DNA of 64,000 nucleotides from Escherichia phage UE-S1. Positions 15,550 to 16,662 of the stretch are shown piece after piece. A program made the translations under genes and the position numbers. Where the stretch lies: the sequence record ON568341.1; one strand, 5' to 3'. The notes under the pieces were generated by a model. That model was not told the origin of the DNA. It saw only the letters and a program-made list of their open reading frames with translations, and ran no database searches. Position 1 is the stretch's first letter. Each line of letters opens with the position of its first letter.

Positions 15550-16662
15550 ATGAAAAAGTATTTGGTTGGCGGTTACGTCCGTGACCGTTTAATGGGTCTT
15601 CGTGCAAAAGACAAAGATTATGTCATTGTTGGTGCATCCGAATCTGATCTTAAGTACTTGCAAAGTATTGGCTATAAGCAAGTAGGTAAGGATTTCCCAG
15701 TATATCTAAGTCCAGAAGGTAATGAACACGCATTAGCCCGTACTGAGCGTAAAACTGGTACTGGATATGGTGGATTTGAAGTGGATACAAAAGGCGTAAC
15801 ACTAGAACAAGATTTGTATCGCCGTGACCTTACAATAAACAGTATCGCGTATGATCCAGTACTGCAAATTCACATCGACCCATACGGTGGAAAAGCTGAT
15901 ATCAAGAATAAAGTTCTACGCCATGTATCCGAACACTTCAAAGAAGATCCATTGCGTGTATTACGCCTGTGTCGCTTTGCAACGCGTTATTCTGATTTCT
16001 CTATACACGAGACTACTGAAGCACTTGTCATCGATATGGTAGCGTCTGGTGAGCTAAATCATCTTGTTCCAGACCGTGTTTTTGTGGAATTTGAAAAAGC
16101 ACTGTCGGAAGAAAAGCCAGCTAAGTTCCTTAAGACTCTAAGTCATTTTGGTTATTACGAAAATGTGTTTAAAACACCATTGACCAAAAAGAATTTGGAT
16201 CTCATTGATTATATTTCAGATAACTGTACTGATGTATATAAACCATATTTTCTGTGGTCTATTCTTCTAGAAAATGAAGAAGTAAATAATGACTCAGAAA
16301 TTAACGGTGCTATTAAAGTTCCTGTTAAATATGTCAAATTTAGTAATTACATCAAACTTTTCCGTGATGATATCAAAACATTCCGTAAAAAGACCCCAAA
16401 TGAAATGGGACAGTTATTACTGGATATGAATATTAAAAATAATGGAGGTGAAGAATTCCTTTATAAAGTGTTGGAATACTTCATTTTGCGAAAAGAAATT
16501 GATTTAGAACTTGAAGATCTAATTATTAAAGTTTATGATCGTTATACTGATGTTGAATTACCTGATATTCAGCAAATGGTTAAAGATGGTGAACTTGAAA
16601 CGTCAGAAATTCGTGATTTTGTTTGTGAACTCCGATGTGAAGCAATCAAGAAACTATTCTAA
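15550..16662 (+). CDS. cca: tRNA nucleotidyltransferase (CCA-adding enzyme, class II)
   Basis: N-terminal GGYVRDRLMG, then GTGYGGFEV, RRDLTINSIAYD and DPLRVLRLCRF motifs typical of bacterial CCA/poly(A) polymerase head domains. Confidence 0.8.
   Translation: MKKYLVGGYVRDRLMGLRAKDKDYVIVGASESDLKYLQSIGYKQVGKDFPVYLSPEGNEHALARTERKTGTGYGGFEVDTKGVTLEQDLYRRDLTINSIAYDPVLQIHIDPYGGKADIKNKVLRHVSEHFKEDPLRVLRLCRFATRYSDFSIHETTEALVIDMVASGELNHLVPDRVFVEFEKALSEEKPAKFLKTLSHFGYYENVFKTPLTKKNLDLIDYISDNCTDVYKPYFLWSILLENEEVNNDSEINGAIKVPVKYVKFSNYIKLFRDDIKTFRKKTPNEMGQLLLDMNIKNNGGEEFLYKVLEYFILRKEIDLELEDLIIKVYDRYTDVELPDIQQMVKDGELETSEIRDFVCELRCEAIKKLF

Follow-up and report, generated by a model that had tools for sequence, protein, structure and literature searches.

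The DNA analyzed here is a 64,000-nucleotide stretch of Escherichia phage UE-S1 (sequence record ON568341.1), referred to below as the window. At positions 15550-16662 it contains a genuine cca-like gene, and the sequence evidence supports its product as a class II CCA-type tRNA nucleotidyltransferase in which the HD phosphohydrolase site of the host-type enzyme has decayed. The reading that we favor, with a probability of about 60%, is that the product is an active CCA-adding enzyme without HD activity, which would mainly complete the phage's own tRNAs and would also take part in end repair. The catalytic activity and the substrates of the phage enzyme are predicted here from comparison with known enzymes and from the tRNA genes of related phages.

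The open reading frame (ORF) is on the plus strand, starts with ATG and encodes 370 residues, as the first-pass annotation had placed it. Residues 7-16 of the product read GGYVRDRLMG and residues 91-102 read RRDLTINSIAYD, so that both strings quoted there are present. The stop codon of a small upstream ORF of 40 codons, which is annotated in SHEFM2K, occupies positions 15546-15548, one base ahead of the ATG, and translational coupling of cca to this ORF is possible. The product matches the Pfam profiles PolyA_pol head (PF01743; 66.5 bits) and PolyA_pol_RNAbd (PF12627; 37.6 bits) as well as the NCBIfam model PRK10885 (E value 1.5e-80). PHROG 2244, "tRNA nucleotidyltransferase," covers the whole length of the protein (387 bits, 2.9e-115). 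The product is 93% identical to the annotated cca of phage slurp01 and 100% identical to a public protein that is labeled "hypothetical" (P0001). An AlphaFold2 (AF2) model, with a predicted local distance difference test (pLDDT) score of 93.4, shows a complete class II fold with a head-neck-body-tail architecture. It superposes on the CCA enzyme of Thermotoga maritima over about 400 columns with a template modeling (TM) score of 0.73, and the TM scores to structurally characterized class II enzymes that have no HD site range from 0.65 to 0.73. The assignment to the class II tRNA nucleotidyltransferases, made earlier from the letters alone, is thus upheld by profile, motif, loop and fold evidence.

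The product has intact motifs A to E, whose key residues do not vary across an alignment of 37 family members. Motif A consists of GGYVRD (residues 7-12) and D21-K-D23, so that the DxD catalytic carboxylates are present; Gly-7, Gly-8, Arg-11, Asp-12, and Asp-23 are invariant in the family, and Asp-21 is conserved in at least 90%. Motif B is RRDLTIN (residues 91-97), and motif C is DPYGGKADI (residues 110-118). The nucleotide-selecting template of motif D (EDxxR) is found in EDPLRVLRLCRF (residues 132-143), and the neck residues Glu-132, Asp-133, Arg-136, Arg-139, Arg-176, and Glu-180 are invariant across the family. The flexible loop, ALARTERKTGTGYGGF (residues 61-76), has the same length as that of Escherichia coli Cca, ALARTERKSGSGYTGF, and is nearly identical to it in letters. 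In a joint alignment, PcnB has seven additional residues in this loop and another three ahead of motif D. A full-length flexible loop serves as a criterion for CCA-adding enzymes, and the loop is shortened in CC-adding enzymes (PMC10673834). By BLASTP, residues 1-207 are 52% identical to Cca of E. coli K-12, and the similarity ends where the HD domain starts. The match to E. coli PcnB is 32% identical and contains three indels.

Past residue 207, BLAST detects no similarity between the phage protein and E. coli Cca. When the C-terminal half was searched alone, no Pfam match was obtained at E values up to 10, PF01966 included, and no sequence match was found in the PDB. This half contains no histidine (residues 210-370) and no HD dyad. 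When the C-terminal half of the family was compared with the C termini of HD-type Cca proteins using hhalign, however, the two aligned over 141 columns with a probability of 96.4% and an E value of 1.3e-9. As controls, the reversed template gave 0.5%, ten column shuffles gave at most 0.2%, and the PcnB C terminus gave 0.9%. This profile comparison shows homology of the C-terminal half to the HD domain of Cca and no relation to the C terminus of PcnB. A gap of about 20 residues in the alignment sits over HDLGK...HHGHG of E. coli Cca, which holds the metal-binding H/HD residues. In the AF2 model the C-terminal half is all-helical, and it superposes on the body and tail of the T. maritima CCA enzyme. 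The 52% identity of the N-terminal half, together with the profile homology of the C-terminal half, indicates that both halves of the protein are derived from Cca.

In E. coli Cca, the HD site confers 2',3'-cyclic phosphodiesterase and phosphatase activity (Yakunin 2004, as cited in PMC6961547). The phage protein has lost this site and is expected to have neither activity. As a consequence, the 3'-phosphate and cyclic phosphate ends that are left by many nucleases would not be healed by the enzyme alone, and the label "multifunctional CCA protein," used for relatives of the gene, is an over-annotation. The earlier description of the protein as full-length has to be qualified, as the HD phosphohydrolase site of the host-type enzyme is gone. 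Relatives without the HD site are also present in ordinary bacterial chromosomes (e.g. P0098), so the HD-less form is no viral invention. The decayed domain carries a family-specific motif, MNIKNNGGEEFLYKVLEYF, at about residues 293-311 (positions 16426-16482). It is absent from E. coli Cca, and its residues Gly-299 and Glu-301 are conserved in at least 90% of the family.

The region around cca is about 92% identical at the nucleotide level to the Asteriusvirus group of E. coli jumbo phages (slurp01, 121Q, PBECO4, Sharanji, phAPEC6, and others), whose genomes are about 350 kb long. Questions that concern the complete genome, namely the presence of a tRNA cluster, a polynucleotide kinase (PNK), and an RNA ligase, were addressed in these close relatives as proxies for UE-S1. 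No tRNA gene was found in the window by ARAGORN, and neither a tRNA nor any other known RNA was found with Rfam at gathering thresholds, in agreement with the first-pass annotation. In the relatives, six to seven tRNA genes (seven in Sharanji) form a cluster at a distance of about 160 kb from cca, and this cluster is kept throughout the E. coli and Salmonella relatives. The 3' ends of these genes were read by eye and then confirmed by a script. No CCA is encoded by four of the seven tRNA genes of Sharanji (piece L003, 13712-17954), three of the seven of slurp01, three of the six of 121Q, and four of the eight of RaK2. In each Asteriusvirus examined, the genes without CCA include those for tRNA-Gly(TCC), tRNA-Ser(ACT), and tRNA-Thr(TGT).

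In the CCA-less genes the discriminator is followed by CA and a run of A or T (CAAAAT, CAAATT, CATAAA, or CAAAAA), a single step removed from the CCAAAT seen in the genes that do encode CCA. These trailers look like the result of decay under relaxed selection, which would be expected if CCA addition were reliably available. All tRNA genes of E. coli encode CCA, and the host uses its Cca for repair only (PMC6468291; PMC6961547); the CCA-less phage tRNAs therefore create a demand that the host does not normally have. A tRNA nucleotidyltransferase is required by those tRNAs of phage T4 that lack CCA (Deutscher, Foulds and McClain 1974, as cited in PMC6468291). The targets of the phage enzyme had been proposed to be probably host tRNAs, and this proposal is weakened, because the CCA-less tRNA genes of the close relatives provide ready substrates of the phages' own. 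Two further features of the cluster were observed. An unusual A34 is present in the tRNA-Ser(ACT), and the Sharanji paper reports a phage-encoded tRNA adenosine deaminase (PMC11895373). The tRNA-Met(CAT) is 90 nucleotides long in Sharanji and 75 nucleotides in slurp01 and 121Q.

In the reading we favor, the protein would be a template-independent CCA-adding enzyme that descends from a Cca of the gamma-proteobacterial type. It would have retained the catalytic head and neck, and the Cca-derived helical body and tail would hold the tRNA. The enzyme would polymerize C-C-A onto 3'-OH ends only and would not remove 3'-phosphates, as the HD site is lost. Its chief job would be to finish the phage tRNAs, about half of whose genes encode no CCA, always including Gly-TCC, Ser-ACT, and Thr-TGT. 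A further job may be to add back nucleotides that are lost in exonucleolytic end turnover, on host or phage tRNA. Such end repair could keep the translation pool charged through the long and demanding infection by a jumbo phage.

Several points weigh against this reading. The C-terminal region is strongly diverged in the phage protein, and C-terminal regions restrict A-adding enzymes in their specificity (Tretbar 2011, as cited in PMC3925840). The signatures of motif E, as quoted in PMC10673834, are ERxxxExxxhh for CCA-adding and sRxxxExxxhh for A-adding enzymes, and the phage sequence DRVFVEFEKAL (residues 175-185) has Asp-175 at the position of the signature Glu; among the 37 family members this residue is Glu in 25, Asp in 10, His in 1, and Asn in 1. 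Phage T4 copes with CCA-less tRNAs using only the Cca of its host, so a phage can manage without a copy of its own. Enzymes of this kind are also found in some small phages that have no tRNA genes (PMC7693777), which indicates that maturation of a phage's own tRNAs is not the universal reason for having one. The tRNA cluster is expected in UE-S1 from its relatives, while the 64-kb window itself holds no tRNA. A search of the literature found no phage CCA enzyme, closely related or otherwise, that had been characterized experimentally.

The positions of the domains of cca and of the neighboring genes are listed in Table 1.

Table 1. The cca-like gene, its domains, and neighboring genes in the window
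Feature	Position	Strand	Size or residues	Basis and remarks
RlaP-family (RNA-ligase-associated Pol-beta) nucleotidyltransferase	1713..2945	+	410 aa	PF10127, 60.4 bits; PHROG 388, 258.9 bits
HPF / ribosomal S30AE-family homolog	13618..13950	+	110 aa	PF02482, 41 bits (cutoff 23.7)
Shine-Dalgarno-like GGGGGA	15539..15544	+		Read from sequence; 5 nt 5' of cca ATG
cca-like gene, class II tRNA nucleotidyltransferase	15550..16662 (including stop codon)	+	370 aa	ORF with ATG start; profile matches
Head, catalytic Pol-beta domain	15550..15924	+	residues 1-125	PF01743, residues 4-124; 52% identity to E. coli Cca; loop length as in Cca
Neck domain	15925..16170	+	residues 126-207	PF12627, residues 149-208
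Body/tail, degenerate HD domain	16171..16659	+	residues 208-370	hhalign; histidine count; AF2 model
NUDIX hydrolase gene, split over two frames	16740..17172 (frame A 16740-~16829; frame B 16771/16774-17172)	+		PF00293, 48 bits
Glutaredoxin	17174..17422	+	82 aa	PF00462, 35.4 bits
Protein with a weak macro-domain match (labeled "phosphatase" or Appr-1-p processing in relatives)	18004..18480	+	158 aa	PF01661, 19.6 bits, below cutoff 22

The two companion genes named by the first-pass annotation, the HPF homolog and a second nucleotidyltransferase, now placed in the RlaP family, are confirmed by Pfam. The annotation had also suggested a phage investment in tRNA repair and had named kinase and ligase genes as a check. 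In keeping with that suggestion, every one of the E. coli and Salmonella relatives listed has both a T4-like PseT kinase/3'-phosphatase (the PNK) and an Rnl1 RNA ligase. In Sharanji these two genes lie about 55 kb from cca, beyond the stretch that is equivalent to the window. The end-healing activity now missing from the CCA enzyme could in principle come from PseT. The description of the surroundings as an early region found no support; the block lies among lysis, tail, and head genes. A promoter and terminator scan around cca was at chance level (22 sites found and 21 expected) and therefore says nothing about early or late timing.

The NUDIX gene downstream of cca is split by one extra C in GGA CAT ACA ACA [C] GGA CAG, with the shift site at about 16800-16803. 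The N-terminal strand, MRYSCGIIFYRDGQILIGHTT, lies in frame A, and the NUDIX box lies in frame B. The split occurs in all five Asteriusvirus genomes checked, whereas phiKp_21 and PHA46 have a single frame. Substitutions, only five of them distinct, favor frame A up to the site and frame B from there on. This pattern hints at programmed frameshifting (+1, at the rare codon CGG) and not at decay. The macro-domain gene is the fifth gene downstream of cca. A faint macro-domain gene (L013, 7561-8124) is also found at a similar distance from a 41%-identical cca homolog, on an unrelated 150-kb phage-like contig that has no NUDIX gene there. Linkage of cca and NUDIX was considered as a sign of functional coupling and was judged weak, being kept in the RaK2-like backbone and lost at the 41%-identical homolog.

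Other features of the window were observed farther from cca. Compared with SHEFM2K, about 3.5 kb (L001, 2591-5918) are missing at about 2950-3100, just downstream of the RlaP gene, where the offset changes from -523 to +3001; besides a "tail fiber protein," the absent segment holds a "tail protein" gene of 2.8 kb. The gene at 6786-7226 encodes a DUF5856/ferritin-like (Dps-like) protein, which is labeled "starvation-inducible transcriptional regulator" in SHEFM2K. A palindrome with a perfect 11-bp stem directly follows the HPF stop codon (13959-13985) and was scored only as a minus-strand terminator-like site. Directly upstream of cca are two overlapping paralogous ORFs, 14589-15005 (138 residues) and 14992-15414 (140 residues), that share the C-terminal pattern ..QY.FIDDTFGIDF/Y..YQ.I..Y..Y.D and belong to PHROG 20693 in SHEFM2K. 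No Pfam match was found for ORF 14589-15005.

Other activities of the enzyme were weighed using subfamily models, motifs, and the C-terminal half. It is very improbable that the protein is a poly(A) polymerase (PAP) or tails RNA in general, with mRNA or other RNAs as its substrates. Over residues 1-207, the NCBIfam Cca model PRK10885 scores 271 bits, compared with 91 for PcnB and 64 for the A-adding model. The Cca score is below the curated cutoff of 451 bits, with model positions 1-207 of 409 matched, and the PcnB models are below theirs as well (TIGR01942, 91 bits against 305.65; PRK11623, 51.5 bits against 702). The PAP I signature, quoted in PMC8208693 as [LIV][LIV]G[RK][RK]Fx[LIV]h[HQL][LIV], is absent from the product, in which QVGKDFPVYLS mismatches at positions 1, 5, and 11. 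Where a PAP needs a basic residue, the phage protein has the acidic Asp-48, which is kept in 35 of the 37 family members and is the same variant as in E. coli Cca. The PcnB-specific insertions are also missing, and the C-terminal half is unrelated to that of PcnB. Placement among the poly(A) polymerases was the outcome that the first-pass annotation had named as contradicting its proposal; the product groups with the CCA enzymes instead. It is also quite unlikely that the diverged C-terminal half limits the protein to an A-adding or partial activity, in which it would restore only a terminal A76 lost through end turnover by RNase T. The A-adding model NF041569 has a cutoff of 1440 bits, far above the 64 bits obtained; Asp-175 is a conservative replacement in a family whose members mostly have Glu; and the C-terminal half has its homolog in the C terminus of a bona fide CCA-adding enzyme. 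An A-adding enzyme would have no CC-adding partner from the phage, as there is a single such gene per phage genome, although the host Cca could still serve as one. The CCA-less phage tRNA genes moreover require the addition of at least C75 and A76.

A different role for the same activity is counter-defense, in which the enzyme would be retained chiefly for restoring the CCA tails of host and phage tRNAs after their removal or damage by immune or toxin systems of the host. Its partners would then be the PNK/3'-phosphatase, Rnl1, RlaP, and possibly the adjoining NUDIX and macro proteins. We regard this as possible but rather doubtful as the main role; for jumbo phages, the thought of an anti-nuclease role has in general terms been published before (PMC7824862; PMC3622015; PMC11895373). 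Enemies of this kind do exist: the RuvC site of Cas12a3 truncates tRNAs 2-4 nucleotides from the 3' end, and the authors of that study state that viruses would need a "yet unknown means of resistance" (PMC12851939). RsCas13 frees CCA from tRNA (bioRxiv 10.64898/2026.08.25.746378), and the CCA end is modified by the toxSAS (CapRel/FaRel2) toxins and by MenT toxins. The phage group is fully equipped for RNA repair, a kit into which a survey of jumbo phages also places CCA enzymes (PMC7824862), and the gene order cca, NUDIX, glutaredoxin, macro is kept down to 58% protein identity. That order, however, belongs to a generally collinear backbone, and the 41%-identical homolog lacks an adjoining NUDIX gene. 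The host already has a Cca, yet its growth is still arrested by Cas12a3 (PMC12851939), and the lost HD site is the very end-healing activity that is needed after HEPN-type or metal-independent cuts; both facts weigh against counter-defense as the main role. Cuts that also take the discriminator are beyond restoration by a CCA enzyme, Cas12a3 systems are not shown in the E. coli hosts of Asteriusvirus-type phages, and we found no experiment in the literature that ties a phage CCA enzyme to evasion of defense. As a secondary role, counter-defense is plausible. A more specific form of the idea, that cca, the frame-split NUDIX gene, glutaredoxin, and macro form a dedicated tRNA 3'-end clean-up module for evading CCA-tail immunity, seems unlikely. 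In such a module the NUDIX and macro proteins would strip blocking groups, after which the HD-less CCA enzyme would rebuild the tail, and the targets would be trimming of the Cas12a3/Cas13 type, pyrophosphorylation of A76 by toxSAS, and MenT-type extension. If it were true, the module would be the resistance sought in the Cas12a3 paper.

Much about this gene is already known. With tblastn, a homolog was found in 493 phage records, at one homologous place per record. Protein coverage reaches at least 80% in 72 of them, and on this basis the C-terminal half appears limited to the RaK2-like supergroup. In most Asteriusvirus records the gene is labeled cca, tRNA nucleotidyltransferase, or "multifunctional CCA protein." The authors of the RaK2 study proposed that gp031 is a CCA-adding enzyme that matures phage tRNAs, beside PNK and RNA ligase (PMC3622015), the Sharanji paper grouped the S30AE protein and the CCA protein as translation genes (PMC11895373), and the survey of jumbo phages, which covered 224 genomes, counted both CCA enzymes and RlaP as adaptations for RNA repair (PMC7824862). 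As the gene, its neighbors, and its likely role have been described before for the phage group, the present analysis contributes little as annotation. What it adds is that the "multifunctional" label is wrong for Asteriusvirus-type phages, whose phosphohydrolase site is gone, and that the three to four CCA-less tRNA genes in each Asteriusvirus genome examined offer the enzyme in-house clients. Between 2022 and 2026, immune systems were described whose target is the CCA tail, which they cut or block, and this makes phage CCA enzymes candidate counter-defense factors, and the E. coli jumbo phages are a convenient group in which to address this question.

The closest counterparts are the cca genes of Asteriusvirus and RaK2-like phages (slurp01 cca, 121Q gp539, Sharanji WNN14700.1, RaK2 gp031, GAP32, and PHA46). 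They are full-length orthologues with 58-93% identity, in the same position with the same neighbors, and their function was proposed earlier in print. There is no substantive difference from the UE-S1 gene, which diverges by about 7% from the nearest phage-collection record. E. coli Cca (b3056; PRK10885 multifunctional) resembles the phage protein in the head and neck, with the 52% identity, all motifs, and the loop, and its C-terminal half is homologous by profile comparison. It differs in the HD metal site, which is deleted or substituted in the phage protein, and the phage protein is 42 residues shorter. The enzymes of T. maritima (3H37/5HC9) and Bacillus stearothermophilus (1MIV) and human TRNT1, none of which has an HD site, share the four-domain architecture and the expectation of CCA-only activity. 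Their identity to the phage protein is 20-25%, and its body and tail are HD-derived, whereas theirs are not. The bacterial HD-less Cca-like proteins of about 360 residues, such as P0098, are 39% identical over the full length and likewise have no HD Pfam match, but their context is cellular (chromosomal) rather than viral. In phage T4, as in the Asteriusvirus group, the tRNAs from CCA-less phage genes have to receive their CCA once the 3' end has been trimmed (Deutscher et al. 1974; Morse and Deutscher 1976, both as cited in PMC6468291 and PMC7693777). T4 borrows the Cca of its host for this step, whereas the Asteriusvirus group brings an enzyme of its own.

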